Shown here: in pieces, positions 15,304-64,000 of the stretch | Layout of the letters: the number at the start of each line of letters is the position of its first letter | Position numbering within the stretch: position 1 is the stretch's first letter | Assembly (NCBI GenBank): GCA_964585475.1 | Contig: CAZPDF010000002.1 | Span: forward strand, 1,631 to 65,630 | Reading direction: 5' to 3' | DNA from: an uncultured Candidatus Saccharibacteria bacterium | Lineage (GTDB): Bacteria; Patescibacteriota; Minisyncoccia; Sungbacterales; HO2-52-23 | Length of the DNA: 64,000 nucleotides | Notes under the pieces: model-generated | Seen by the model: only the letters and a program-made list of their open reading frames with translations | Told to the model about the DNA's origin: nothing | Database searches by the model: none | Made by a program: the position numbers and the translations under genes

Positions 15304-15987
15304 ATGCTACTATCTCGCGACGCTATCCTAAGACATTTTAAGGAGGGCAATATTGTCATTGACCCTTTTAACGAGCGGAAGTTAAGGACCACAAGCTATG
15401 ATGTAACGCTCGGGGAGTGGTTTTGGCGCGAGGGGCATCCGGAAGGACGGGCAACCCTCCACAATCTTTACGACGAAACTTCCACCAAACTGGTTTGGCA
15501 GGGGCCGCATCAGGCCGAGAAGGCGAGGGACGTGTCGGAACGCCTCGGCATGTCCTTGATAAACGTAAGGTCCGATGAAAAGATTATTCTGCTCCGGCCC
15601 GGGGAGACCGTGCTTGCCCATACGGACGAATTTATAGGGGGCCGCAACCGGGTGGTTTCCAAAATGTATGCTCGATCCTCGCTTGGCAGGAATTTCATCG
15701 AGGTTTGTAAAGACGCGGGGTGGGGAGATGTCGGATATTTCAATCGCTGGACCATGGAGGTGACGAATAATTCGCAGTATTTCACGATTCCCTTGGTGGT
15801 GGGACGCCGTATCGGACAGATGGTGTTTTACGAAGTTGAGCCAATTAAGGGCGCGCCGGATTACGTCAAGGATAAGGATAGCGGTAAGTATCAGCGTTCG
15901 CAGGACGTTGAGGAATTGAAAAAAACCTGGGACCCGGAGATGATGATACCGAGAATGCATTTGGATTGGGAGGTTCGCTCGGTATAG
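15304..15987 (+). CDS. dcd: dCTP deaminase / dUTPase-superfamily protein
   Basis: MLLSRDAILRHFKEGNIVIDPF matches the dCTP deaminase N-terminus MILSDRDI...I.I.PF; internal ATG chosen. Confidence 0.65.
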   Translation: MLLSRDAILRHFKEGNIVIDPFNERKLRTTSYDVTLGEWFWREGHPEGRATLHNLYDETSTKLVWQGPHQAEKARDVSERLGMSLINVRSDEKIILLRPGETVLAHTDEFIGGRNRVVSKMYARSSLGRNFIEVCKDAGWGDVGYFNRWTMEVTNNSQYFTIPLVVGRRIGQMVFYEVEPIKGAPDYVKDKDSGKYQRSQDVEELKKTWDPEMMIPRMHLDWEVRSV

Positions 15988-15994
15988 CGGTCCT

Positions 15995-16124
15995 CAGTAT
16001 TTTGCTTTTTAGACAAGGCTTCGGCCGCTCCAGCGGCGGCCTGCAGGGTCGGCGAGGCCCTCGCGCTCTGCGCGAGACCAAGCTACCTCGCCTCCCATTG
16101 TCTCAAAAGCAAAACACTTCGACC
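15995..16124. repeat. About 130-bp structured repeat, family B (GTATTTTGYTTT...CGCTCCAGCGGCG...CCCATTGTYTC.AAARCAAAAYAC.TCGACC), copy 1
   Basis: Near-identical architecture and conserved blocks shared with 62259-62392; terminal IR agtattttgctttttagacaa / ttgtctcaaaagcaaaaca; sits immediately after the dcd stop. Confidence 0.65.
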
Positions 16125-16277
16125 GCCTATGTCTCGCTTGTAGCATGTTATCGAACGATTTATTTTTATCGAGGGCGTGCCTCGATATTTTTTGTCTTGC
16201 CTCTTTATGCTTAGAATGTTATTGTGATCGAGGATCGTTGAAAGAGGGAGGACGCACTGAGGCGCTACCTTCTCGCC

Positions 16278-23266: not shown

Positions 23267-24277
23267 ATGACAGATCCATTAGGTAGGGGCCTCGAATCCT
23301 TAATACCCAACAAAGAGCCGGACGAAGTTCCGGGGGTTTTGAATACGGAGCCGCAGGATCCGCCCTCTCCTTTAGCAGAAAAACCCCGGCCGTCTCTTGT
23401 CAATCTTGGCTCTCCGGCCGCGCGCACTTACGAGGATCATTTTACTCCTCGCAGGAGCGATTCTGTTTTTTGGATAGAAATTGAAAAAATCGAGCCGAAT
23501 CCTTACCAGCCGCGCCGCGAATTTAATGAGGAGGCATTAAAAGGGCTTGCGCATTCCATCCGCGAACACGGAGTGCTCCAGCCGATACTTGTTACCAAGC
23601 GCGAGATAGAAACTCCGACCGGCCTGGATGTCCGGTATCAATTGATTGCCGGAGAAAGACGGTGGCGCGCGGCAGGCCTGGCCGGCCTCTCCCAAATTCC
23701 TGCGGTAATCAGGCGCGGCATTCCGGATGACCGGATACGGCTTGAGCTCGCCTTAATTGAGAATGTACAGCGCGAGGATTTAAACCCGATGGAAAAAGCC
23801 CGGGCATTCAAGCAATTGATTGACGAGTTTCATCTGGTACAGCGCGAGATTGCCGAGCGCATCGGAAAATCGCGTGAGATGATTGCCAATACCCTCCGTC
23901 TTTTATCACTTTCGCCGGACATCCAGCAAGCGCTCCACGAGGGGCGCATAACCGAAGGACACGCGCGGGCGGTTTTGATGGCCGGTGACGATCCGCAAAA
24001 ACAGACGCTAGTTTTTAATGCCGTGGTAATGGATCGCCTGAATGTTCGAGAGGCGGAAAACCGCGCGCGGCAAGTTTCCGGAAAAATTTTTGTTCCGCGA
24101 AAACGTCCTGCGCAAGTCCATGATCCGGAGACGCGTTCTTGGCAGACAAAACTCGAGGAGCTATTAGGAACTAAAGTCCGAGTGGAGAAATTGGGCGAGC
24201 GCGGAAAAATTGTCGTTGAATTTTATTCGGATGAGGAATTAAGAGGTATACTTGACAAATTAATAAGGGAGGTATAG
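23267..24277 (+). CDS. parB: chromosome partitioning protein ParB/Spo0J
   Basis: IEKIEPNPYQPRREF...QLIAGERRWRAAGLAG...HTH; C-terminal GERGKIVVEFYSDEELRGILDKLIREV. Confidence 0.9.
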   Translation: MTDPLGRGLESLIPNKEPDEVPGVLNTEPQDPPSPLAEKPRPSLVNLGSPAARTYEDHFTPRRSDSVFWIEIEKIEPNPYQPRREFNEEALKGLAHSIREHGVLQPILVTKREIETPTGLDVRYQLIAGERRWRAAGLAGLSQIPAVIRRGIPDDRIRLELALIENVQREDLNPMEKARAFKQLIDEFHLVQREIAERIGKSREMIANTLRLLSLSPDIQQALHEGRITEGHARAVLMAGDDPQKQTLVFNAVVMDRLNVREAENRARQVSGKIFVPRKRPAQVHDPETRSWQTKLEELLGTKVRVEKLGERGKIVVEFYSDEELRGILDKLIREV

Positions 24278-25552: not shown

Positions 25553-25745
25553 CCCCCGGAGAAACTCGGCACCAAAGTTATGGTGCAAAAAATAGGGGAG
25601 AGAGGGAAAATTGTGGTGGAATTTTACCCCCACACCTATTAAACGCAATTGAAATTGGTGCGAAGCACAGCGTTTAATAGGTGTGGGGGTTTATTCGGAC
25701 GAGGAGTTAAGAGGGATTCTTGATAAACTTATTCGAGAGGTATAG
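25553..25745 (+). pseudogene. Diverged duplicate of the parB 3' end, interrupted by a 63-bp palindromic element
   Basis: PEKLGTKVMVQKIGERGKIVVEFY-[insert]-SDEELRGILDKLIREV* versus genuine ParB LGTKVRVEKLGERGKIVVEFYSDEELRGILDKLIREV* at 24160-24277. Confidence 0.6.
25627..25689. repeat. Palindromic element, CCCCCACACCTATT family, inside the parB-tail remnant
   Basis: cccccacacctattaaacgc-aattgaaattggtgcgaagcaca-gcgtttaataggtgtggggg has 20-bp perfect TIRs; second family member at 58200-58322. Confidence 0.7.
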
Positions 25746-26320: not shown

Positions 26321-26507
26321 TTTCACCCCTTTGGTTTGGTAAACTGCTGATTATGCGAATCCGCGTGTCGTTTGAGGGCCTTGCGAGGCGGAGCGGCCAT
26401 GGTTTTCCGCCGGAGGCGGAAAGAGCGACGCCGAGCACGGGAGGTGAGGACGCCTCGGCGGGGCGTCCGACAGCCGTACCGAAAACGACATGTGGATGAG
26501 CGATCTT

Positions 26508-28244
26508 CTAAAGCAGTTTATACCCCACCTCCTCCACTCCTTTCACCTCTTTCAGTTTCACCCTGGTTTTCTCAAGCTGGACGCGATTTTTAAAAGGGGC
26601 CTGGATTGATAAAACCGCCCAGGCCTGATTTTTGGTATCGGTAACCACTTTTTTTATATTTATTTTTTGCCGAGCGAGAACGTTGGTAACGTCCCTCAAA
26701 AGCCCCACACGATCTTTGATGGTGAGATTCAGTTCAACGGTTTCTCCGCCTCGTTTTTCAAACGTGTTCTCCTCCCGAAGTTTTTTCAAAACCGAAGACA
26801 CTTTTTTCCGCGCTTGCGCGCTTTTGACAAACCCAAGCCAGTCGCGGCTTGGCTTTTTATTTTTCTGCGTCAAAATTTCAACGACGTCCCCGTTTTTCAA
26901 TTGATGATCCAGCGCCGTCATTTTGCCATTTACTTTGGCTCCGGTGGCGCTGTTTCCTATGTCCGTATGAATATGGTAGGCAAAGTCCACTGGCGTTGCT
27001 CCTTCCGGCAGATCAAAGACATCGCCTTTTGGGGTAAGTACGAAAATACGGTTTTTGAAGAAATCAATTTTCAATGATTCAAGAAATTCGTCCGGCTTAT
27101 CAAATTCTTTCTGCCATTCGCGCAATTGCTCGATCCAAGCGTACTGTTTCCGGTTCACTAGGGCCTGCTTTTCTTCGGCGTATGAGGCGGTTTGAGTTCT
27201 TTTGAATTCGGAGTACGCCCAGTGCGCGGCAATGCCATATTCTGCTTCCTCGTGTATCTCATCCGTCCGCATCTGTATTTCCACCGGCCTTTCTTCCGGC
27301 CCAAAAACCGTCGTGTGGAGAGAGCGGTAGCCATTGGGTTTGGGCAGGGCAATATAGTCCTTGATTTTTCCCGGCATCGGGCGCCAGAGCTTGTGTACTA
27401 CACCCAGGGTCGCGTAGCAGTCCTCTACTGTCGGCACGATTACCCTAAGCGCCACGAGATCGGTGATTTTGGAAATATCCATATCGTATTTAAGGAGTTT
27501 TTTATACAAGCTGTAGTAGCGTTTGGCCCGCGCGTGAATATCGAGGAATTTTATTTTTTCTCGAGCCAGCTCCTCCGCGATAAAGGGCTTTATTTTTTTG
27601 ACGTATTGATCCCAATCCTCGTATTTCTCTTGGGCCGTGCGCATGATCCATTCGTGCTCCTTGGGATATACATAAGGGAACGCTAAATCCTCGAGTTTCC
27701 CGGATAGTTCTTGTATGCCCAGGCGGTACGCAAGAGGTGCGTAAATTTCAAGGGTTTCTAAAGCGATCCGCCGCTGTTTTTCCGGCGGCAGGTGACCCAA
27801 AGTTTCCATATTGTGGGTACGGTCTACGAGTTTAAGAAGCACAATCCGAATATCTTCGGCGATCGCAAGGAACATTTTTCTCAAGCTCTCGGCGGTTCTT
27901 TCCGTGCCTCTGTAGCGGATTTTGTCGAGTTTCGTCACGCCTTCAACCAAAAATGCGATTTCATCCCCAAAATTTTTCTTTATATCCGCAATCGTATATT
28001 CGGTATCTTCGCAAACATCATGAAGGAGGGCGGCGGCAATTGTCGGCGCATCAAGCCGCATCTCGGCAAGCCGCAGCGCCGTGGCCATGGGGTGCACGAT
28101 ATAGGGCTCGCCGGATTTTCGTTTTTGGCCTTCGTGGGCGTGGGACGCAAAATCATACGCTTTTTTGATAAGCGCTGAATCTTGGTCCGGCCGCGCCTGA
28201 ATTTTCATTTTTTCCAAAAGCGAATTGACGGTCATGATAGCCAT
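26508..28244 (-). CDS. bifunctional (p)ppGpp synthetase/hydrolase, RelA/SpoT (Rel) family
   Basis: HD domain HDVCEDT; synthetase motifs (DLVALRVIV, RSLHTTV); TGS (IFVLTPKGDVFDLPEGATPVDFAYHIHTDIG); C-terminal ACT-like; start at MAIMTVNSLLEK. Confidence 0.9.
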   Translation of the reverse strand: MAIMTVNSLLEKMKIQARPDQDSALIKKAYDFASHAHEGQKRKSGEPYIVHPMATALRLAEMRLDAPTIAAALLHDVCEDTEYTIADIKKNFGDEIAFLVEGVTKLDKIRYRGTERTAESLRKMFLAIAEDIRIVLLKLVDRTHNMETLGHLPPEKQRRIALETLEIYAPLAYRLGIQELSGKLEDLAFPYVYPKEHEWIMRTAQEKYEDWDQYVKKIKPFIAEELAREKIKFLDIHARAKRYYSLYKKLLKYDMDISKITDLVALRVIVPTVEDCYATLGVVHKLWRPMPGKIKDYIALPKPNGYRSLHTTVFGPEERPVEIQMRTDEIHEEAEYGIAAHWAYSEFKRTQTASYAEEKQALVNRKQYAWIEQLREWQKEFDKPDEFLESLKIDFFKNRIFVLTPKGDVFDLPEGATPVDFAYHIHTDIGNSATGAKVNGKMTALDHQLKNGDVVEILTQKNKKPSRDWLGFVKSAQARKKVSSVLKKLREENTFEKRGGETVELNLTIKDRVGLLRDVTNVLARQKINIKKVVTDTKNQAWAVLSIQAPFKNRVQLEKTRVKLKEVKGVEEVGYKLL

Positions 28245-48829: not shown

Positions 48830-49246
48830 ATGGACTGCCTTTTCTGCAAAATCGCCGCAGGCGAAATTGGCTCCGAGGTTATATATGAGGACACGGAGGT
48901 AAAGGTTTTCAAAGACCTTCACCCCAAAGCCCCGGTGCATCTGCTCGTTATTCCTAAAACTCACATTCAGTCCATTGCGCATCTGGACCCCGCACCTTTT
49001 GTGGACTGCGCTTCGCGCGGGGACTCACACTTAGTCCACAAAAGGTGCGGGGTGGAAGCCGACCAACAGTGTTATATAATCGCCAAACTGATTTATGCCG
49101 CCAAGAACGCTGCCGCGGATCAGGGATTGAAAGGATATAAATTAGTGTTTAATGTGGGGCGGGAAGGAGGGCAGGTGATAGATCATCTGCATCTGCATTT
49201 GCTTGGTGGATGGGGAAGCGAGGGTGAGAGGAGTATAAATGTTTAG
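48830..49246 (+). CDS. HIT-family (histidine triad) nucleotide hydrolase, with in-frame palindromic insertion
   Basis: HLLVIPKTHI...; HLHLHLLGG triad; insertion at 48988-49052. Confidence 0.8.
   Translation: MDCLFCKIAAGEIGSEVIYEDTEVKVFKDLHPKAPVHLLVIPKTHIQSIAHLDPAPFVDCASRGDSHLVHKRCGVEADQQCYIIAKLIYAAKNAAADQGLKGYKLVFNVGREGGQVIDHLHLHLLGGWGSEGERSINV
48988..49052. repeat. In-frame palindromic element (CCCCGCACC TIR, MITE-family-like) inside the HIT gene
   Basis: ccccgcaccttttgtggac-tgcgcttcgcgcggggactcacacttag-tccacaaaaggtgcgggg has 19-bp perfect TIRs. It encodes DPAPFVDCASRGDSHLVHKRCGV between the conserved HIT segments. Confidence 0.75.
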
Positions 49247-49546: not shown

Positions 49547-49811
49547 GAAAGGCGCGGTTTCCTCGGCAATTCTTTTTGAAAACACGCACGGCTGCCCCAG
49601 CGGGCAGCCGTGCTCAGTGATCTGCCGGCGACTCGCCTTCGGCGAGACCGTGCTCGCCGGCCTCTCAATGGTTTTCTAAAAGAACTGCCTCGACCGCTTG
49701 GACCCATCTTAAAAGAAAAAAGTGAAAAGGAAATGAAAAAACCGAGGAGCAATCCTCGGATTTGACTTTTCACAACCTTCCGCTTATATTGGTGCTAGAT
49801 CATATAAAAGA

Positions 49812-54171: not shown

Positions 54172-55272
54172 GTGCCCCAGTTAAAACCAGACATCGAAAC
54201 ATACGCGAGGATCAAGGTGGTGGGAGTAGGCGGAGGAGGAGGAAAGGCAGTGACGAGAATGATTGACCATAAAATAAATGGGGTTGATTTTATTACCATA
54301 AATACTGACGCGCAGGATCTGCATTTTACGAAAGCAAAGACCAAAATCCATATCGGGAAGAATCTCACCAAGGGTCTTGGCGCGGGAATGAATCCGGAAG
54401 TGGGGAGGCAGGCGGCGGAGGAAAATAGAGACGAGATACACGAAATTCTAAAAGGAGCGGATATGGTTTTTCTTACCTGCGGTCTGGGAGGAGGGACAGG
54501 GTCCGGCGCATCCCCCATCATTGCGGAGGTGGCGCGGGATGCGGGGTCGCTGGTAATCGGCGTTGTAACGAAGCCGTTTGGTTTTGAAGGAGCCAAGCGC
54601 GCGGAGGTTGCGGAAGAGGCATGGCACCACTTGAAGGAGCGGGTGGATGCTTTAATTACCATTCCTAACGACCGGCTTCTGAACGTAATCAATAAAGACA
54701 CTTCGTTAGTAAACGCCTTTATCATATGTGATGACGTTTTGCGACAAGCCGTTCAGGGGATTTCGGATCTCATTATCAGCCCGGGCATAATTAATGTGGA
54801 TTTTGCCGATGTGCGGGCGGTTATGAAAGAGGCCGGATCGGCCTTGATGGGCGTGGGGCATGCGACCGGAGAGGATAGGGCGGTGGTAGCAGCCAAATCT
54901 GCGGTAAATTCTCCGTTGCTTGATGTATCAATTGACGGCGCGCGTGGGGTTCTCTTCAATGTTTCCGGCGGCCCGGATCTTACCATGTGGGAAATCAACG
55001 AGGCGGCTAAAGTAATTACCGAATCCATTGACCGCGAAGCCAAAGTGATTTTTGGCGCGGTGCATGACGAGCGCCTGAAAAAAGGAGAAATAAAAATTAC
55101 CGTGATTGCCACCGGATTTAACTCTTCGCCCACGCTTAAACTGCCGCTTCATCGCGGGGATGGGCATGAACAAAAGAAACCGCCCCCGGTTGGAAATAAA
55201 AAACAGAGTAATGTCGAGGAGGAAGAAAGCGAATGGGACGCGGTGCCGGCGTTTTTGCGGCGGAAAAAATAG
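54172..55272 (+). CDS. ftsZ: cell division GTPase FtsZ
   Basis: ARIKVVGVGGGGGKAV...GGGTGSGASPIIAEVARDAG tubulin signature; GTG start, exact start uncertain. Confidence 0.95.
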   Translation: MPQLKPDIETYARIKVVGVGGGGGKAVTRMIDHKINGVDFITINTDAQDLHFTKAKTKIHIGKNLTKGLGAGMNPEVGRQAAEENRDEIHEILKGADMVFLTCGLGGGTGSGASPIIAEVARDAGSLVIGVVTKPFGFEGAKRAEVAEEAWHHLKERVDALITIPNDRLLNVINKDTSLVNAFIICDDVLRQAVQGISDLIISPGIINVDFADVRAVMKEAGSALMGVGHATGEDRAVVAAKSAVNSPLLDVSIDGARGVLFNVSGGPDLTMWEINEAAKVITESIDREAKVIFGAVHDERLKKGEIKITVIATGFNSSPTLKLPLHRGDGHEQKKPPPVGNKKQSNVEEEESEWDAVPAFLRRKK

Positions 55273-55415: not shown

Positions 55416-56252
55416 TTAGTTATCAATATCTACCGCACGCTCTTTGCGTAATGTTCGGAATTGTTCTAGCAGGTCTGGATTGTTATTTTGCAAGAACTCC
55501 CAGGCATGCAAGTTTAAGTCAAGCTCATATGTATATTTGTATTCCGTATGAGTCCTTTTGTATTCCAGGAGCCTTGAAGCCATTTCTAGCCGTTCGGACA
55601 CAGTAGGATTTTCTGAAGTATAGGCCGCTTCAGCATCGATCATGACGTGCATCGCCCAGGGTGTATACATTTGTAAGCGTCTGTTCCCCGGATATTTTGC
55701 ATAGATGTTTAACAAGAAATCAATGACAGTAATTCCATATCTTTTGCCATAGTACCTGCCCAGTAGCGCAAAATCGGAAAGCGATCTTGATAGTTGATTT
55801 CTGTCGCTATCGTCATCTTTATTCCAATCAATAGCTTTTATTACTTCCAGCATCTGCCTAAAGAGCGGATCCGTCTGTTCAAAATTAAACTCTTGACGAG
55901 TATCTTGAATATCCGCAAGGCGCCGCGAAATAGTCTTAAAAGATGTTTCAAGAAAGTCCTGTGCGGTCATTCCATATTTTTCGAGTAATGCCGGTGTGAT
56001 ATCCGCATTTCCTTTGCAGCTTAGCTCGTCACCGCCTTTTATGTTATTTTCGTCGCGTTTTTCTCCTTTGGCGCTAATCCGAATAGTATACTCGTCAATC
56101 CTTTCTATACGAGTGCTATTTTCGAAGTTTTTTAACTCGCCGACCTTCAGCATCTCCCAATATTGATCTCGTTTCGGGTTTTGCGCGAAACTTGATTGTG
56201 AAAGAACCAAGACACCCAATGCAACAAATAGGGAAGTAGTTACTCTTTTCAT
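55416..56252 (-). CDS. secreted protein with one copy of a roughly 130-aa repeat domain (YYGK(R/Q)YG core), paralog of 56467-57882
   Basis: Signal peptide MKRVTTSLFVALGVLVLSQSSFAQN; domain ...DWNKDDDSDRNQLSRSLSDFALLGRYYGKRYGITVIDFLLNIYAKYPGN... Confidence 0.5.
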   Translation of the reverse strand: MKRVTTSLFVALGVLVLSQSSFAQNPKRDQYWEMLKVGELKNFENSTRIERIDEYTIRISAKGEKRDENNIKGGDELSCKGNADITPALLEKYGMTAQDFLETSFKTISRRLADIQDTRQEFNFEQTDPLFRQMLEVIKAIDWNKDDDSDRNQLSRSLSDFALLGRYYGKRYGITVIDFLLNIYAKYPGNRRLQMYTPWAMHVMIDAEAAYTSENPTVSERLEMASRLLEYKRTHTEYKYTYELDLNLHAWEFLQNNNPDLLEQFRTLRKERAVDIDN

Positions 56253-56466
56253 CCGTCGCACCCGCGTTCTTTTGTGTGAATATGTAGCACAGCTCCGTAT
56301 TTCTGTCAAAGTAGCCAGACGAGCCGTTGAGTATAAGTTAATTCCACATACGAAAAGTAGGGAAGTGTTTCTACTAAACTATTGTCGCCGATCGGCGGTG
56401 GTAGTTTAGTAGCTGACGTATCACCGGTTTTAAAAATCCCAACGGAGGTCCGTTGGGCGCTTTTTT

Positions 56467-57882
56467 CTACTTTTTCTCGTTTTCGCGGGTTTTTTTAAGA
56501 TCCAGCAGGCGCTTCACTAAATCCGGCGCAACTACCTGAAGGATCGCTTCTGCCGAGCCGGACGACACGGAATCATCAGGGTAATAAAGATAGAGGGTGT
56601 AAAGTTTCTCGCCAAGCTCTCTTCGCTCGGCCCGGGTGGGGATTTCTATTCCTCGGGCATCCGCTGAAGTGATCATTCGTCGAATGGATTCCTGGTACAC
56701 ATCTCTTAGCGTGCCGTCTTGGGGATACTTTCTCATAAGATCTTCCAGCATCCGAACAATGCGCCATCCGTATTGTTTGCCGTATGCTGCCGTCCACGCG
56801 ATTCTCTCCACCTCGCTTTTATCAAATGGCAGAGAGCCGTCTGGTCTGGGTCGCGCGCGGTTAAGAATTTTTTCGATTTCCGAAAGAAGCGTCCACGATG
56901 CAGAATTATTTTCTTGATACCAGACGCTTGACCGTAATGATTCCACGAGCGCCTTGAATGCTTCCTTCTGGGTGAGGCCCGATATTGGAAAATCGTAACG
57001 CGGATCGTGAAAGCTTACGTTTTCAATCGGAGAGTAAGCCGAGCTACGGTTTAGAGTTTCCTTTTCTCTTAGCGCGACTTCCTGCTCGTTTCGTACCGCA
57101 TAAATTTTTTCAAGAACGTCGGGTGCTACAATTCTTGCTAAGGCCTCTCCGCCATGGTAGGAATCCAGCGGCAGGTATGCGGAAGGATAGTTTTTATAAA
57201 GCTCGAGAAGTTTTTCTAGCAGAGTTCTTCGTTCCTCCGTTGTGGGGACTCCGATGCTGGAGGAGGGTGCGAGCGTAAGGAGGTGGTGCACTGCCACGCG
57301 AAGGGCAACGTGAATTTCGCTTTCAGGGAACTCTGCGGTAAGTTCGGTAAGAAGTTCTAGGATCTTGAAGCCGTACTGCTTGCCATAATAATATCCAATT
57401 TGAGCGAGGGCATAGGGCGCATCGCTAATAGAGGATGTCGTCTTGTAGTCCCCCCAGTCCATTGTTTTGGCAAACGACACAATTTTGTCAAAAAGTTTGT
57501 CGGCTTGCGGATCGTCAGTGATTCCTGCCTCCTTCATTTCGCTGAGGCGTTCCTCGAGTTCTTTAACCAAAAAATAAAAGGCGTCTTGCGTTTTCTGGCC
57601 CTCGGTCGGCTCGTTCGGCTCGCATGAAGAGTTTCCCATTTCATCAAAACGCAAAGGTGCTTTTCCTGTCGAGAGATTTTTCTCGGTGATTTTATTTACC
57701 TTGTTTCCGGTTAGGGAAACGACGATTGTATCCTCGCCCCGCAATTCTATTTTCAGCGAGCCGTTGCCTACGTTGGAAAGTCGTTCAATATCCTCTTTTT
57801 GCCAATTTTGCGCGAAACTTGATTGTGAAAGAACGAGGATTCCGACAAGCAGGGAAAGGAGGAGAGGAATAAGCTTTTTCAT
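56467..57882 (-). CDS. secreted protein with two tandem copies of the YYGKQYG repeat domain
   Basis: Signal peptide MKKLIPLLLSLLVGILVLSQSSFAQN (shares VLSQSSFAQN with the paralog); repeats around ...ALAQIGYYYGKQYGFKILELL... and ...AWTAAYGKQYGWRIVRMLEDL... Confidence 0.5.
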   Translation of the reverse strand: MKKLIPLLLSLLVGILVLSQSSFAQNWQKEDIERLSNVGNGSLKIELRGEDTIVVSLTGNKVNKITEKNLSTGKAPLRFDEMGNSSCEPNEPTEGQKTQDAFYFLVKELEERLSEMKEAGITDDPQADKLFDKIVSFAKTMDWGDYKTTSSISDAPYALAQIGYYYGKQYGFKILELLTELTAEFPESEIHVALRVAVHHLLTLAPSSSIGVPTTEERRTLLEKLLELYKNYPSAYLPLDSYHGGEALARIVAPDVLEKIYAVRNEQEVALREKETLNRSSAYSPIENVSFHDPRYDFPISGLTQKEAFKALVESLRSSVWYQENNSASWTLLSEIEKILNRARPRPDGSLPFDKSEVERIAWTAAYGKQYGWRIVRMLEDLMRKYPQDGTLRDVYQESIRRMITSADARGIEIPTRAERRELGEKLYTLYLYYPDDSVSSGSAEAILQVVAPDLVKRLLDLKKTRENEKK

Positions 57883-58083
57883 CAGAAGATTCTCCCAAGA
57901 GACGCTCTACAATCTTTAGCATTTATCATTATTTTTGTCAACCCCGTTAGAAGTTTCTGGAACACATGTATCTTCTTTTTGCGGTGATACTTTCTGATGC
58001 ATTTTTGTTGTTGTTTACGTGAGCATAAAAAATGTTGAAATTTTTTATGTCATAAACTTCTAATTGGGTCAAGGACTCATTAC

Positions 58084-58092
58084 TTATCCACA
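58084..58092. promoter_or_regulatory. Perfect DnaA box TTATCCACA in the AT-rich nrdJ upstream region
   Basis: cattacttatccacagaattttttt lies within the 480-bp AT-rich intergenic region. Confidence 0.4.
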
Positions 58093-58199
58093 GAATTTTT
58101 TTGACTGGGCATGGCACCGCGATATAATTAAGCTAACAACCTTAGCTACCAAGAAATTTTTCGAAAATTCTCTTTCGTCCGGGCGGTCAGCCCCCACAC

Positions 58200-58322
58200 C
58201 TATTTTGAACTGCGGTATACGTATTTAGCGGATGTTCTTGAGAACTGCGGCCACAAGCCCGGTGTCGATAGAATCCCAGTGCGTAGTCTGCAGTTTCTGA
58301 TTGTTCAAAATAGGTGTGGGGG
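58200..58322. repeat. Palindromic element, CCCCCACACCTATT family, immediately upstream of nrdJ
   Basis: cccccacacctattttgaac ... gttcaaaataggtgtggggg; 20-bp perfect TIRs flanking 83 bp; sibling at 25627-25689. Confidence 0.7.
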
Positions 58323-58365
58323 CACGCCGAGGAGGGCGGAGGAGAATTTTTGTCAAGAAACGTAC

Positions 58366-61300
58366 ATGACACGGATCCTTCAAGACCAAAGAACAGAAGA
58401 GCATAAAGCAGCTCGACACCCGCTTCCTTTGAAGCGGCTTTTTACTAAAGAAGGATCGCACCCCTTCGACGGGGTTGGGTGGAAGAAAGTGAAAGTTACC
58501 GTGCGCGGCATCAACGGTCACGTTGAGGAACGGGAACTTGAATTTCCGGATTTTTGGTCGGAGAACGCCGCAATCATTGCGGGCTCCAAATATTTTCGCG
58601 GCCGCATCGGGTCTCCGGAGCGAGAAATATCAGCACGCGAGATGATCCGCCGGGTTTCCGAAACTATCAGCGGCTGGGGTTTTAATCTCGGATACTTTGA
58701 TACCCAGGATGATGCGCAAATTTTTGGAGAGGAACTCGCGCATATACTTCTCCACCAAAAAGCCGCTTTTAATTCTCCGGTCTGGTTTAACGTTGGAATA
58801 GAGTCTCCTCCGCAGTGTTCCGCCTGTCAGCCGTACCGAGCGCTGGTAAGTACGCCCTCCGGATTTTTCCCGATTGGAGAAATCGTAGAAAAAAATCTTT
58901 TGGGACTGCCGGTATACGATTCACAAGGCATTACGCGGGTTATTGCCGTAAAAAATAACGGAGTAAAAAATGTTTATAAAATCTGTCTTCGTAACGGAAC
59001 TTTTATAGAAGCCACCGGAGACCATTTGATCAAAGCAGCGCGCGAAAGAAGAACACGATCGCAGTGGATTCGCGTTGACGAACTGAGTGAAGGAATGCGG
59101 CTACATTTGTATCCGCATAGAGAAATTCTACAGAAGCAAATTTTGGCGCCTGCTATGCAGGATTTGGTTAGTAGTGCGGCCGCGAATTCGAATGTTATTA
59201 CCGCAGCACCTCCGCTAGTTTCGCTTAAAAATTCACAAGTGGAGATTGGTGAAGCGGCGCTTGCCGGATGGCTGCAGGCGGATGGGTTTGTGGGGCAGTA
59301 TCAAACAGGAACCAATCGTTCCTTGACCATAGAGTTTATGGCAGTGACTCCCGAGGAAAAGCAGTGGATAGAGATGCATCTTAATACCGTATTTCCTTAC
59401 GTTCATCGGAAAGTACGTATCACCAAGACCAAAGCGGGAACTCCCATAACGAGGATTCGCCTGTACGGTGAATCGCTGCGTTCTTTTGTAGAAAAGTATG
59501 AGCTTTTGAAGAGACGTCAGGCTATCCGTGTGCCCCAGGCGCTTTGGAAGAGTCCGCCGCAGGTTAGCAGTGCATATTTGAAGAGCGTCTTTCAGGGTGA
59601 AGGATTTGTACATATGCGAGAACGGTCGGTTCACGTCGCCTTTGACACCATCAGCCAGGAATGGATGCATGATGTACAAATACTTTTATATGGACTTGGT
59701 ATTTATTCGCGCATTCGGCATAAAAAAGAACCTCGTTCTAACCGCAGCGATCTCTATGAACTTGATATCAGTTATGGAGGTGAACGAAAAAAATTCGCTG
59801 ACCGCATCGGATTTATAAGCCAAGAAAAACAGGATAAGTTAAATGCCTCACTGGAAATTGATCGTCAGAAGAACGTCCCCGATCTTCGAGAGGAAGAGAT
59901 TGTCCATATCGAGCAGTTGGGCGAAGAGGTGGTATACGATATTCAAACCGAGAGCGGTGAATATTTAAGCAATAACGTTGCTGTTCATAATTGTTTTATA
60001 CTTTCGGTCGAGGACAACATGGAATCGATCCTGCAATGGATTTACACCGAGGGCATGATTTTCAAGCGCGGATCCGGCGCGGGGATAAATCTTTCCACTC
60101 TTCGCTCAAGCCACGAGACGTTGTCCAAAGGCGGCCATTCTTCCGGTCCGGTATCTTTCATGAGAGGAGCGGATGCGGTTGCCGGCATGATTGCCTCCGG
60201 CGGATCAACCAGGCGTGCGGCAAAAATGGTTGTGCTGAATGCCGACCACCCGGACGTTATGAGATTCATACGTTCGAAGTCCGAGGAAGAAAAAAAAGTT
60301 CGGGCGCTGATTGCGGCAGGATATAATATGTATGATTTGAATAATGACGCTTGGAACTCGATTCAATATCAAAACGCGAATAATTCGGTAAGAGTCACGG
60401 ATGAATTTATGAATGCCGTTGAGGGCGATGAGAAATGGACCACGCGATATGTTACCACCGGCAAGGTGACCGAGGAAGTCCGGGCGCGCGATCTTATGCG
60501 CGCGATTGCCCAAGCCGCCTGGGATTCCGGAGATCCGGGGATGCAGTATGACACCACTATCAATCGCTGGCATACGGCTTCAAACACGGGCCGCATAAAC
60601 GCCTCTAACCCGTGCGCCGAATACATGCACCTTGATGATTCCGCCTGCAACCTTGCCTCGATCAACCTTCTGCGGTATTTGAATCGGGACGGGACTTTTA
60701 ACGTGCGCGATTTCATCCATACGGTGGATATCATGACTTTGGCGCAGGAAATCATAGTTGATTCTTCAAGCTATCCCACGGAAAAAATCGCTAAAAACGC
60801 GCATGAATTCCGGCAGCTGGGCTTAGGTTATGCCAATTTGGGCGCACTTCTTATGACTTGGGGCTTGCCCTATGACTCGGAAGAAGCGCGCCACACAGCA
60901 GCTTCCATAACCGCGCTTATTTGCGGGGAGGCGTATCGCTATTCTGCCGAGATTGCCAAACGCATGGGTCCTTTTCCCGGATACAAATTTAATAAAGCGC
61001 CGATGTCAAATGTCCTGGTCATGCATCGCGACTCGTTCGGAAGGGTGAGGGAGACGCGGGTTACGGATCGCGAGATATATCGTGCCGCAAAAAAAGTATG
61101 GGAGGAGGCCGTGGCTATGGGCAAGAAATACGGAGTTCGCAATTCGCAGGTTACGGTTATAGCCCCCACCGGAACCATCGCCCTTATGATGGATTGCGCA
61201 ACCACCGGGGTGGAACCTGAATTTGCGCTGGTGAAAATCAAAAATCTCGTCGGGGGTGGAACGATGAAATTCGTAAATACCGCCGTGCCGGATGCTCTTT

Positions 61301-62244
61301 TGCACCTCGGGTATCTTGAGGAGGAAGTTGGTGCGATTGTCTTTTACATTGAAAAAAACGGAACGATTGAGGGCGCGCCGGGATTAAAAGAGGAGCATTT
61401 GGCGGTTTTTGATTGCGCGGTAAAACCTGCAGGTGGAAAGCGATCAATCGCCTGGCAGGGACATGTAAAAATGGTGGGAGCAGTGCAGCCCTTTATCTCG
61501 GGAGCAATTTCAAAAACCTTCAATATGCCGCACGAGACCACGGTTGAAGAAATTATGCAGGCCTACACTATGGGTTGGAAATTGGGACTTAAGGCCTTTG
61601 CCGTCTATCGCGACGGATCAAAAGCGGCCCAGCCCTTGGTAACTGCCTCCGGGCAGGGCGGCGGGTCTTTCGAGCGAAAACCCGCGCGCAGGAAACTTCC
61701 TCCAACCCGGCCCTCCGAGACCCACAAATTCTCGATTGCCGGGCATGAAGGATATTTGACTTACAGCACTTTTGAGAATGGCGATTTGGCCGAAATTTTT
61801 ATCCGTATGTCAAAACAGGGCTCGACTTTGGCAGGGCTCTTGGATGCATTCGCGATTGCGATTTCGATCGCGCTTCAGCACGGGGTTCCTTTGAAAATTT
61901 TGGTGCGAAAATTTGCCTACGGCAGGTTTGAGCCGGCAGGATACACCGAAAATGCGGCAATCCAAATTGCAACCTCCATTACCGACTACATCTTCCGCTA
62001 TCTTGCGCTTAGGTTTTTGTTGCCGCAGGATTTGGATGAATTGGGAATTAAAGCGCCTCCCAAGGAAGTGGAGGCGATGACCAAAACGCTCAACGGGCTA
62101 CTGGAGGCGCGCGAGAAATCTTTGCCGGATCCGGATCGGCTCGTTTATGCCGATAGCGTATGCCGCGAGTGCGGAGGAATGATGATTCAGACCGGCGCCT
62201 GCAAAACCTGTTTTAGATGCGGAGCGACGTCTGGGGGTTGTTAA
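58366..62244 (+). CDS. nrdJ: class II (adenosylcobalamin-dependent) ribonucleotide reductase NrdJ, interrupted by an intein
   Basis: Extein motifs: ...SPVWFNVGIESPPQCSA|CFILSV... (active-site Cys loop), GSGAGINLSTLRSSHE, NPCAEYMHLDDSACNLASINL, C-terminal CRECGG...CKTCFRCG zinc ribbon; start ATG 58366 is tentative. Confidence 0.9.
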   Translation: MTRILQDQRTEEHKAARHPLPLKRLFTKEGSHPFDGVGWKKVKVTVRGINGHVEERELEFPDFWSENAAIIAGSKYFRGRIGSPEREISAREMIRRVSETISGWGFNLGYFDTQDDAQIFGEELAHILLHQKAAFNSPVWFNVGIESPPQCSACQPYRALVSTPSGFFPIGEIVEKNLLGLPVYDSQGITRVIAVKNNGVKNVYKICLRNGTFIEATGDHLIKAARERRTRSQWIRVDELSEGMRLHLYPHREILQKQILAPAMQDLVSSAAANSNVITAAPPLVSLKNSQVEIGEAALAGWLQADGFVGQYQTGTNRSLTIEFMAVTPEEKQWIEMHLNTVFPYVHRKVRITKTKAGTPITRIRLYGESLRSFVEKYELLKRRQAIRVPQALWKSPPQVSSAYLKSVFQGEGFVHMRERSVHVAFDTISQEWMHDVQILLYGLGIYSRIRHKKEPRSNRSDLYELDISYGGERKKFADRIGFISQEKQDKLNASLEIDRQKNVPDLREEEIVHIEQLGEEVVYDIQTESGEYLSNNVAVHNCFILSVEDNMESILQWIYTEGMIFKRGSGAGINLSTLRSSHETLSKGGHSSGPVSFMRGADAVAGMIASGGSTRRAAKMVVLNADHPDVMRFIRSKSEEEKKVRALIAAGYNMYDLNNDAWNSIQYQNANNSVRVTDEFMNAVEGDEKWTTRYVTTGKVTEEVRARDLMRAIAQAAWDSGDPGMQYDTTINRWHTASNTGRINASNPCAEYMHLDDSACNLASINLLRYLNRDGTFNVRDFIHTVDIMTLAQEIIVDSSSYPTEKIAKNAHEFRQLGLGYANLGALLMTWGLPYDSEEARHTAASITALICGEAYRYSAEIAKRMGPFPGYKFNKAPMSNVLVMHRDSFGRVRETRVTDREIYRAAKKVWEEAVAMGKKYGVRNSQVTVIAPTGTIALMMDCATTGVEPEFALVKIKNLVGGGTMKFVNTAVPDALLHLGYLEEEVGAIVFYIEKNGTIEGAPGLKEEHLAVFDCAVKPAGGKRSIAWQGHVKMVGAVQPFISGAISKTFNMPHETTVEEIMQAYTMGWKLGLKAFAVYRDGSKAAQPLVTASGQGGGSFERKPARRKLPPTRPSETHKFSIAGHEGYLTYSTFENGDLAEIFIRMSKQGSTLAGLLDAFAIAISIALQHGVPLKILVRKFAYGRFEPAGYTENAAIQIATSITDYIFRYLALRFLLPQDLDELGIKAPPKEVEAMTKTLNGLLEAREKSLPDPDRLVYADSVCRECGGMMIQTGACKTCFRCGATSGGC
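58825..59991 (+). mobile_element. 389-aa intein with a LAGLIDADG homing-endonuclease domain inserted at the NrdJ active-site loop
   Basis: Begins CQPYRALVSTPSGFFPIGEIV (block A), TGDHLI (block B, T..H), LAGWLQADGFVG and YLKSVFQGEGFV (two LAGLIDADG motifs), ends VYDIQTESGEYLSNNVAVHN followed by +1 Cys. Removal restores QCSA-CFILSV. Confidence 0.85.
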
Positions 62245-62258
62245 AACGGTGGTTCCCT

Positions 62259-62392
62259 CGGTATTTTGTTTTCGAAACACGTCTCGCGCGCTCCAGCGGC
62301 GCGCTCGCTAAGGGTCGGACGAAGTTTCGCGGATACGCCGCGAACCAAGCAACTTCGCCCTCCCATTGTTTCGAAAACAAAATACCTCGACC
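62259..62392. repeat. About 130-bp structured repeat, family B, copy 2 (after the nrdJ stop)
   Basis: cggtattttgttttcgaaacac...gcgctccagcggcgcgc...cccattgtttcgaaaacaaaatacctcgacc; shares terminal IR and internal blocks with 15995-16124. Confidence 0.65.
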
Positions 62393-62613
62393 ACCGTTTT
62401 TAAATTCTTAAATTTCTGCACCTTAAATTTAAAGGGGTTTTGCATGCCCGCGGTTTTTTGGGGTAGAAAATAAAAAACGGCCTGCCCCCCATCTATTTTA
62501 CTGCTGAGTTTCTAGTGAGCAAAACGAGTGTAAAAGAAGAAGAGCGCCCGCATGGAGACGCTCTTGTCTGGTAAAATAGGTGTGGGGTGCGACTGCACCG
62601 CCTCCTGCTTTGA

Positions 62614-63093
62614 TTATAATGCCGTCTGGGGCGTCAGTCTTTCGAAGACCCAGAAAAGGATACGCTCGAAGAGCGGACGGATTTCTTCATAGCGGGGACC
62701 CAGGGGGTCTTTGGTAACGCAGCACCAACCTGTTTGATCCTCATCGTGGTAGAAAGTGATTTCCACTTCCACCTCGTTGTAGGTTGTATCAAGTTTGAGC
62801 GGATGAAGGTTGAAAGTTATTGCGGTATTCTCCTCGAACCTGACCCGTTTTCTGAAGATACCTCTTTCCACAAAATGCCACGGCCGCACCAAAGCCCCCT
62901 TCGTTCTGACGGCTTGCAGTACTGACCCGGGCCTGTATTCATATTCGCCAACGTATTCTTTTCCGCAAAGTTTTGTTGTGCTGTGTGTAACCCCATGTAG
63001 TTTTACCGTGCCGGGCGCGAAGTAGGTGGAGATCTCCGTAAATATCCCGACGATTTCTTCTCCTGTGGCCGGTCGAGGCAACCTTACTTTCAT
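62614..63093 (-). CDS. hypothetical protein
   Basis: 159-aa ORF; no motif I can place confidently. Confidence 0.35.
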   Translation of the reverse strand: MKVRLPRPATGEEIVGIFTEISTYFAPGTVKLHGVTHSTTKLCGKEYVGEYEYRPGSVLQAVRTKGALVRPWHFVERGIFRKRVRFEENTAITFNLHPLKLDTTYNEVEVEITFYHDEDQTGWCCVTKDPLGPRYEEIRPLFERILFWVFERLTPQTAL

Positions 63094-63297
63094 TTTCTAT
63101 GCCCCTGCATGTTTTGGTTCCGGGATGATTCTAGCATTTGTGGTTTAAAAGTCAATGTTAAGAAAAAACCGGCGGTTTTCGCCAGCGAGGGTTTGTGATT
63201 AGTACGATCGAAAGTGTACGCGCGTTTTTTGAGGTAGAAAATGTAAACCGGCGGAGGGAATAGAACCCTTTCGCCGGTCAGGTTGTGGACCCGCGCG

Positions 63298-63588
63298 TTA
63301 GCGCCGGGCGGCGTCTCTGAGAAAGTCGCACCAGTCCCTCGTCAGGTCCGTGAATTCGCCGAAGTGTTGATTGCCTGTCTCTTCGACGACACCGCCGCAG
63401 CCGGGGCATCTCACCACCTTGTCACCGAAGGCGAGGTGCGAATCGTAGAACACCTCAGCCCCGCAGCCGGTGCAGGAGCCCTTGCGGCTAGGGAACGTGT
63501 TGCAACCCCCGTGCGCGAGCACCTGTAACAGGTAGTTGGTTCCGCTCTCATCGAGTGTTCCCAGGGCAAAGTATCGGTTTTTGAGCAT
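63298..63588 (-). CDS. hypothetical zinc-ribbon protein
   Basis: CTGCG ... CPGCGG paired CxxC motifs. Confidence 0.4.
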
Positions 63589-63657
63589 GTTCTCCCCCCG
63601 CCTTTTCTGGAATTATTTCGTAATATCCATTATACACCACTTATAGAAAAAAGTCAA

Positions 63658-64000
63658 ATGCTTTATATCTTCACGGGTAACGGCAAGGGTAAGACCACGG
63701 CGGCTTTGGGCCAAGCCATACGCGCTGTGGGTGAGGGGAAGCGGGTTTTGATGGTGCAATTTATAAAAGGCCCCTGGAAATCGGGGGAGGATAATATAAA
63801 AGTCATCCTGAACGAAGTGAAGGATCTTGGAGATCCTTCGGTCGTCACGCTCCCTCAGGATGACAAACGCGGTTTTTTCAAACTTGTCAAAATGGGCAAG
63901 GGTTTTGTGGGGATTATGGGAGACAAACTGCCGCGAGAAGAGCATGAGAAAGCTGCGGAGGAGGCGTTGGACTATGCGAGAAAAGAAATAGAATCCGGCA
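63658..64000 (+). CDS. cobA: cob(I)yrinic acid a,c-diamide / corrinoid adenosyltransferase (CobA/CobO/BtuR-type), partial at window end, with in-frame hairpin-element insertion
   Basis: [39 protein letters not shown]-loop signature; hairpin element at 63802-63863. Confidence 0.7.
63802..63863. repeat. In-frame palindromic hairpin element, family A, inside cobA
   Basis: gtcatcctgaacgaagtgaaggatcttggagatccttcggtcgtcacgctccctcaggatgac encodes [21 protein letters not shown]; same termini and reading frame as the leuS copy. Confidence 0.75.

Follow-up and report, generated by a model that had tools for sequence, protein, structure and literature searches.

The 3′ end of a 64-kb stretch of DNA (hereafter the window, meaning the whole stretch that was analysed) carries nrdJ, which encodes a class II adenosylcobalamin-dependent ribonucleotide reductase (RNR) interrupted by an intein, and cobA, which encodes a corrinoid adenosyltransferase. 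We are fairly confident that the whole is best explained as a nrdJ–cobA deoxynucleotide-supply locus in the genome of a member of the Sungbacteria (Patescibacteria, candidate phyla radiation). Annotations of the best protein relatives name Candidatus Sungbacteria/Sungiibacteriota and Parcubacteria, and a scan of a genome collection with nrdJ returns Sungiibacteriota metagenome-assembled genomes that are 78-80% identical. Our comparisons use the fetched nrdJ loci of seven relatives (L001-L007) within a wider set of 28 Patescibacteria and about 50 non-Patescibacteria loci, and an ENA contig, L088, that is identical to the window across 11,635 nt and continues beyond the window end; the full collection comprises 88 loci. 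The principal features are the following.

57938-58072, no strand: degenerate miniature inverted-repeat transposable element (MITE; the element itself is 57942-58068) with CCCCGTTAGAAG... ends and a TCAA duplication on each side, recognized by its inverted repeats, identical 4-nt flanks and empty sites in relatives
58084-58092, plus strand: consensus DnaA box TTATCCACA, a perfect 9-mer (TTWTNCACA) 8 nt upstream of the -35 hexamer
58101-58128, plus strand: sigma-70-type nrdJ promoter, TTGACT-16 nt-TATAAT, from a promoter scan (11/12 consensus matches)
58162-58352, plus strand: leader hairpin, fold energy -109.6 kcal/mol, z = -9.6 (for the composite with its insert)
58191-58322, no strand: 132-nt MITE-like palindrome with CCCCCACACCTATTTTGAAC ends in the loop of the leader hairpin, with 21-nt perfect arms (inverted repeat 58190-58323)
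58366-62244, plus strand: nrdJ, precursor of 1292 aa (N-extein 58366-58824; C-extein 59992-62241; stop codon 62242-62244), identified by Pfam, NCBIfam, homologue alignment and PDB 7b9q (E = 1e-168)
58825-59991, plus strand: intein of 389 aa, with splicing and two-motif LAGLIDADG endonuclease domains, delimited by its boundaries, Pfam profiles, motifs and intein-less alleles
62248-62396, plus strand: 'family-B' structured repeat, a three-way junction within a 20-bp stem (20-nt perfect arms 62260-62386; 139 bits with covariance model R1)
62485-62587, no strand: degenerate MITE of 103 nt, CCCCCAC...TATTTT family
63658-64000, plus strand: cobA, first 114 codons, continuing past the window end (TIGR00708 E = 7e-21; PDB 1g5r E = 7.5e-25)
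63802-63864, plus strand: 'family-A' hairpin repeat within cobA, GTCATCCTGA...TCAGGATGAC

An earlier note on this DNA had pointed to many of these features, and all of its sequence features are found at or within about 10 bases of where it placed them. The exception is a 'parB-tail remnant' said to carry the palindrome family: parB occupies 23267-24277, and the palindrome copy in question (25626-25690) lies about 1.3 kb downstream, past small unrelated open reading frames (ORFs).

The reading frame of nrdJ is open from GTG 58279 or ATG 58366 to 62244, and its product matches five Pfam families (Ribonuc_red_2_N, Intein_splicing, LAGLIDADG_3, Ribonuc_red_lgC and TSCPD). The assignment to NrdJ is borne out by the NCBIfam equivalog for B12-dependent RNR, PRK06556 (NF005122), which scores 1262 bits (cut-off 859). 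The class II profile TIGR02504 scores 591 against a cut-off of 400, the class II N-terminal domain PF08471 is present, and the extein carries SNPCAEY, with the active-site Asn-x-Cys-x-Glu, and DSACNL. The cobA fragment encodes the P-loop GNGKGKTT and scores 74.7 with TIGR00708, below the full-length cut-off because it is truncated; in L088 the full cobA ORF is intact and encodes 192 aa with PF02572. The earlier proposal that nrdJ and cobA form a functional pair is supported by synteny, with cobA downstream of nrdJ in 11 related loci (L001, L002, L004-L008, L010, L016, L017 and L088); cobA was not found in the 6-kb flanks of the non-Patescibacteria nrdJ loci. CobA would adenosylate salvaged corrinoid and so provide the NrdJ cofactor.

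The consensus DnaA box at 58084 is present, as had been claimed. It is the sole perfect copy in the window, and a single copy taken alone is at chance level; it is more than chance because it is conserved in orthologous promoters. At the promoter position the box is perfectly conserved in 8/8 Sungbacteria loci, adjoining TTGAC or TTGAT. All seven fetched relatives read TTATCCACAG, an A/T run and then TTGAC(T/G/C) or TTGAT, and a recognisable TAxxAT-type -10 hexamer aligns in most of them. A perfect plus-strand box lies upstream of nrdJ in 14 of the 28 Patescibacteria loci (18.2 kb of upstream sequence), and the rest of these loci (322 kb) contain 6 boxes on both strands, corresponding to an upstream enrichment of about 80-fold per strand. 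The box directly abuts the -35 hexamer in the more distant Patescibacteria loci, and TTWTNCACA variants occupy its position in L008, L014 and L023. Weighing against a general role, the other 14 Patescibacteria loci have no perfect box; among the non-Patescibacteria loci, a perfect box lies upstream of nrdJ in one only. Judged from these alignments, the DnaA box is a conserved element of the nrdJ promoter and does not mark an origin. DnaA most likely binds this box and would tune reductase transcription to replication status, by analogy with Escherichia coli nrdAB.

Two other kinds of regulatory element for which the earlier note had suggested searches were not found in the upstream region. No relevant Rfam match at E <= 1, to a cobalamin riboswitch or another leader element, falls in 57883-58365, and only a tRNA passes the Rfam gathering thresholds across the whole window. 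An NrdR box (16-bp acaCwAtATaTwGtgt) is found nowhere in the window with up to 3 mismatches. At this locus, where neither an NrdR box nor a riboswitch was found, the DnaA box offers a concrete candidate regulatory site in a group of bacteria about whose regulation very little is known.

The intein lies exactly at the boundaries that had been given for it (58825-59991, 389 aa) and has the two intact LAGLIDADG motifs described there, LAGWLQADGFVG and YLKSVFQGEGFV, each of which retains its acidic residue. Its sequence runs CQPYRAL...VAVHN and is followed by the extein CFILSV, with Cys1 (CQP), block B ATGDH (TxxH type), the C-terminal His-Asn and the +1 Cys (VAVHN|C) as splicing residues. Tested by itself, it passes both Pfam gathering thresholds, with 41.6 bits for Intein_splicing PF14890 (cut-off 35.8) and 53.2 for LAGLIDADG_3 PF14528 (cut-off 22.5), so that the suggested profile check for intein blocks was positive. 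Splicing of the precursor would restore PQCSA-CFILSV, using the +1 active-site Cys as nucleophile. The previous description of an insertion in the 'catalytic Cys loop' is correct in that the intein directly precedes an active-site cysteine, with one caveat as to which cysteine. By alignment offset the +1 residue, Cys154, matches residue 134 of Thermotoga maritima NrdJ (1xje), which is a member of the redox-active cysteine pair, equivalent to E. coli R1 Cys225; the radical cysteine is the one in the NPCAE motif, downstream of the intein site.

The intein is polymorphic among close relatives. It is precisely absent from four Sungbacteria alleles (P0013, P0014, P0016 and P0018) with extein identities of 79-81%, in which PQCSA|CFILSV aligns without a gap and the DNA is also contiguous across the insertion site. 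The same site is occupied in other Sungbacteria and Parcubacteria alleles and in P0063, which belongs to a match group that includes several annotated Actinomycetota. Intein and LAGLIDADG annotations occur in most of the best 120 database matches, and the insertion site is shared by 8/8 of the intein-bearing ones that were aligned. Intein identity roughly tracks extein identity (70.7 versus 81.0% for the closest allele, 56.9 versus 57.9% for P0063 and 63.2 versus 62.5% for P0011), which indicates that the intein is old and mostly co-inherited.

The intact motifs suggest that the endonuclease may be active now or was recently, and such activity would explain the coexistence of intein-plus and intein-minus alleles among close relatives. 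A distinct possibility, although we favour it less, is that the endonuclease is a decaying relic, and that the intein splices but no longer homes and is inherited vertically. That intein identity follows extein identity over the long distances to P0063 and P0011 fits a relic, as does P0003, in which an Asp-to-Gly change has removed the acidic residue of motif 1; the latter counts against present activity. Speaking for activity, the acidic residues of both motifs are kept here and in 11/12 motifs of the six closest intein-bearing relatives, and presence and absence are mixed among alleles with 79-81% extein identity.

What had been described as an AT-rich spacer is a promoter and leader hairpin, enlarged by two MITEs. 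The hairpin lies between promoter and start codon and has an 11-bp core in which CTCTTTCGTCC (58170-58180) pairs with GGGCGGAGGAG (58334-58344), with TTTTT at 58347-58351. This core is kept in 10 genomes, where CTCTTTCGTCC pairs with GGRCGAAAGAG-like sequences, with three compensatory pairs and one of 110 cells broken, and a TTTTTGTCT-like sequence always stands 3′ of the stem. The hairpin looks like an intrinsic terminator or attenuator, and it would serve as such or as an mRNA-stabilizing stem.

The loop of this hairpin contains the palindrome that had been placed at 58200-58322. The palindrome is present and does enclose GTG 58279, but those coordinates are slightly short of the full inverted repeat (58190-58323). 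Its arm motif occurs in 8 copies in the window against 0.1 expected. The bare hairpin, with no insert, is found in L001 and L003; L002 carries a related insert at this site of the leader loop, with arms 2 nt shorter each and a diverged interior, and L006 has another MITE type there, so that the site is occupied in 3/11 Sungbacteria loci by two element types. Palindromic inserts would be tolerated here because they merely lengthen existing hairpins.

The second MITE of the upstream region, 57942-58068, has a conserved TTGTCAA motif on one side and the DnaA box on the other. Its empty sites read TTGTCAA-N10/11-TTATCCACA in L001, L002 and L003. As a side observation, the TTGTCAA motif precedes the DnaA box by 10-12 nt in 7/8 genomes and lies farther upstream in L007; the MITE is inserted exactly at this motif (57935-57941 / 58068-58072), and its duplication restores GTCAA beside the box.

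The palindromes of the locus are MITE-like repeats. Their grouping into families, made earlier from the sequence alone, is borne out by inverted-repeat and copy scans, and they show the expected MITE characters, being small and non-coding, with terminal inverted repeats and several copies. A scan for CCC[CG]...GGG inverted repeats in the window and the seven loci gives 32 candidates, of which 8 have identical 4-nt flanks, mostly TNNA, where about 0.1 would be expected by chance. Three insertions are clean against an empty site: 57942-58068 (TCAA; empty in L001-L003), an element of L001 just ahead of cobA (TCAA; empty in the window and L002) and 48988-49052 (TGGA), which adds 23 in-frame residues to a HIT protein. 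In the HIT gene (48830-49246), a 65-nt CCCC...GGGG MITE and its TGGA duplication make up 69 nt (48984-49056), and the orthologues of L002 and L003 keep the flanking residues SIAHL|EADH unchanged; this clean in-frame insertion shows the family to be mobile.

Other observations limit this reading. Neither the leader palindrome 58191-58322 nor the 62485-62587 MITE has a target-site duplication, and for both mobility is judged from family membership. One old insertion and two independent ones are indistinguishable for the related leader inserts of the window and L002. No autonomous partner, sought as exact 14-nt CCCC... arms 400-4000 nt apart, was found in the window or the 88 loci. We also considered whether CCCC...GGGG MITEs target hairpin loops in general and rejected this, as the flank complementarity of 18/20 copies is no better than that of random positions. 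Among these 20 copies, only the two in nrdJ leaders exceed chance; the flanks of most family-B copies are complementary as well.

Family B, reported earlier as a structured repeat downstream of nrdJ, is present there with a fold energy of -80 kcal/mol (z = -9.6). The stem of the nrdJ terminator, AAAACGGTGGT/ACCACCGTTTT (62243-62253 with 62389-62399), encloses it, and a T-run (62399-62403) follows. Covariance model R1, built from seven family-B copies, finds four copies in the window, after nrdJ, dcd, rpsU and relA/spoT (minus strand), each beginning 0-5 nt past a stop codon and in the orientation of its gene. A trial sequence pattern recovered 2/7 of the copies then known, the conserved motifs being too short and variable. 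The three other window copies are as follows.

15984-16128, plus strand: family-B copy after a dCTP-deaminase-like gene
49553-49699, plus strand: family-B copy after the gene for ribosomal protein S21
26349-26509, minus strand: family-B copy after RelA/SpoT

We regard it as rather improbable that the palindromes, family B and the leader insert especially, are not mobile and are instead selected functional structured RNAs, such as regulatory modules of 3′ or 5′ untranslated regions. In five genomes family B takes up the same post-nrdJ site, with conserved loops (TCCAGCG, GGTCGG, ACCAAGC) and compensatory change in 32/50 pairs; these observations, the position and orientation of the window copies directly after stop codons and the repeated occupation of the leader-loop site all favour a structured RNA. 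However, the nrdJ copy of L001 is closer to the window rpsU copy than to the window nrdJ copy, so the apparent covariation reflects subfamilies of a dispersed repeat and not compensation in place. Family B follows nrdJ in L001-L004, but L005-L007 have plain terminators instead and the repeat is absent from the more distant Patescibacteria loci. Furthermore, one L003 copy is antisense, between ftsA and ftsZ, the L003 nrdJ copy has the CCCC...GGGG ends of the MITE family and a 4-bp duplication, and no Rfam family matches. A narrower proposal, that family B is a signal of deoxynucleoside triphosphate (dNTP) metabolism as it follows nrdJ and dcd, was rejected because the other copies follow rpsU and relA/spoT.

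Palindromic repeats also lie in coding sequence. The family-A hairpin insert that had been noticed in cobA is present at 63802-63864 and, with adjacent bases, amounts to 19 extra in-frame CobA residues relative to the L002, L005 and L006 orthologues. Other copies of family A (GTCATTCTGAGCG.AGCGAAGAATC...) lie in frame in the genes for TatD DNase (1087-1142) and leucyl-tRNA synthetase (LeuRS, 4878-4937), where they are read in two different frames, SHSERSEESKEILRVAQDD and VILSEAKNLDRSFGLSPQDD. A palindromic repeat is of a type able to mislead assemblers, and the cobA insert might be taken for an assembly artefact or the sign of a pseudogene. This is very unlikely: the insert keeps the reading frame, the ORF continues unbroken to the conserved C-terminus KGKRGLEY (192 aa), a separately assembled ENA contig is identical, other inserts occupy the same CobA loop in L001, L004 and L007, and the same repeat is in frame in TatD and LeuRS.

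The remaining alternatives concern the DnaA box and the start of nrdJ. A perfect consensus box in a spacer of 36-41% GC might suggest a replication origin or its remnant, but we rejected an oriC reading as scarcely credible: the box is single, with no other at <=1 mismatch within 4 kb and hence no cluster; cumulative GC skew climbs steadily over 55-64 kb without a turning point; and the box keeps its fixed position beside the nrdJ -35 hexamer though the neighbouring genes differ between genomes.

Translation of nrdJ begins at ATG 58366 and not at GTG 58279 within the palindrome, as comparison with homologues indicates. The homologues begin at the position equivalent to ATG 58366, with a conserved LPLxRLFTKEGxHPFD shortly after; one relative has a GTG start at this position, and no conservation of the reading frame upstream of it was seen in the comparison with homologues and relatives. 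The upstream GTG, which the earlier note had raised as a possible start, would make the palindrome coding, and the ORF is indeed open from 58279; this is nonetheless hardly plausible, since 10/11 distinct homologues start at or near the ATG position, in the one homologue that extends farther upstream (P0014) the gene was called too long and the DNA concerned aligns as non-coding leader, the 29 additional codons fall within a repeat that L001 and L003 do not have, and the ENA gene call (P0121, 1292 aa) takes ATG 58366. The palindrome is non-coding.

Existing gene models differ at this start. The NCBI model P0001 (1251 aa) begins 41 codons too late, omitting 58366-58488, and the P0014 model of a relative begins too early, in the leader; the repeats thus affect gene calling.

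Between nrdJ and cobA lie two small ORFs and a conserved hairpin.

62614-63093, minus strand: lineage-specific ORF of 159 aa, called as a gene in the ENA assembly
63247-63278: GAGGGAATAGAACCC-loop hairpin (at ~6040-6075 in L001, ~10963-10998 in L002 and ~11298-11335 in L003)
63298-63588, minus strand: cysteine-rich ORF of 96 aa in an island of GC 0.63, against ~0.48 around it

Neither ORF has a match in Pfam, NCBIfam or PADLOC, or a homologue in the relatives' loci. PHROGs gives nothing for the 159-aa ORF and, for the 96-aa ORF, a single weak match (E = 0.003) of unknown function; the GC-rich island of the 96-aa ORF suggests recent acquisition. The hairpin (ACCGGCG-GAGGGAATAGAACCC-...CGCCGGT) is terminator-like, with a conserved loop, and lies between nrdJ and cobA in four genomes despite differing small ORFs. 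A 29-nt direct repeat (GTTTTTTGRGGTAGAAAAT..AAA.CGGC), 86% identical, is found at 62453-62481 and 63224-63252, just past the 3′ ends of both minus-strand ORFs.

Two further observations concern the wider window. Two paralogous genes (297 and 471 aa) at 55416-57882 on the minus strand, between ftsZ (54172-55272) and nrdJ, break the ftsA-ftsZ-nrdJ order of the relatives; in L006 a single homologue stands at this position. Within the LeuRS ORF (1755-5462, plus strand, 1235 aa), two Pfam domains lie in the synthetase frame, alpha/beta-hydrolase or Ser_hydrolase (aa 301-411) and NUDIX (aa 624-744), an unusual domain insertion or fusion.

Overall, the locus is ordinary, an intein-bearing nrdJ with the partner that activates its cofactor; its headline feature is unexceptional because RNR inteins are routine, and its regulatory and mobile-repeat details are moderately interesting. 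Going beyond the earlier note, the DnaA box appears from its conservation to be a promoter element, and palindromic repeats are seen to occupy hairpin loops and, in frame, coding genes of a small genome. A box conserved across many Patescibacteria predicts that dNTP synthesis in these uncultured, tiny-genome bacteria is coupled to the replication initiator, as in E. coli. The repeats provide a case of small palindromes invading a streamlined genome of the ~1-Mb class, in the loops of leader and terminator hairpins and in frame in cobA, HIT, TatD and LeuRS, and the in-frame copies bear on how proteins of these lineages gain their many inserts. A more speculative idea, which we consider unlikely, is that the palindromes are more than passengers: the leader loop would be a recurrent landing site and family B a mobile terminator module behind stop codons, these elements and the conserved DnaA box would together tune expression of the only reductase identified, and in-frame copies would add surface loops in the manner of Rickettsia palindromic elements (RPEs). 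If true, the addition of such loops would be an RPE-like process of which these bacteria have so far provided no description.

The intein closely resembles known class II NrdJ or 'RIR1' inteins, which likewise lie in frame at a conserved active-site position before a +1 Cys, with standard splicing blocks and a two-motif LAGLIDADG domain. There is no essential difference from known RNR inteins. With 211 inteins counted, reductases rank second among bacterial intein hosts (PMC4760082), and the host here belongs to the candidate phyla radiation, a group that is not in the taxon list of that 2015 survey. CobA aligns over its full length with Salmonella enterica CobA/BtuR (PDB 1g5r), save for one loop, and shares its P-loop GNGKGKTT; the 19-residue insert falls in this loop, at about S. 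enterica residues 77-98.

The nrdJ promoter is reminiscent of E. coli nrdAB, where the promoter of the housekeeping reductase is closely preceded by one or more consensus DnaA boxes, which tie dNTP supply to the initiator (PMC8203912). DnaA control of nrdAB in E. coli has counterparts proposed for Bacillus subtilis and Caulobacter (PMC8203912). Here, by contrast, there is one box and not three, the reductase is of class II, the host belongs to the Patescibacteria and the part played by DnaA is read from sequence.

The MITE-like repeats resemble the Correia, RUP and Streptococcus pneumoniae SPRITE elements, which are also short, non-coding, present in many copies and bounded by terminal inverted repeats and duplications, with stable hairpins and regulatory or terminator placement (PMC10969869). 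They differ in their CCCC...GGGG ends and in a 4-bp duplication that is often TNNA, and no parent insertion sequence was found in the window and the 88 loci. Family B comes closest to terminator-like repeats of the SPRITE kind (PMC10969869) but is distinct in having a conserved branched core and lying directly behind stop codons. The in-frame inserts, finally, recall RPEs, palindromic repeats that enter unrelated housekeeping genes in frame and leave them unbroken (PMC10969869), as the repeats here do in cobA, TatD, LeuRS and HIT. Compared with RPEs, they belong to other repeat families and another host lineage and are shorter, at 19-23 residues, with four cases in 64 kb.

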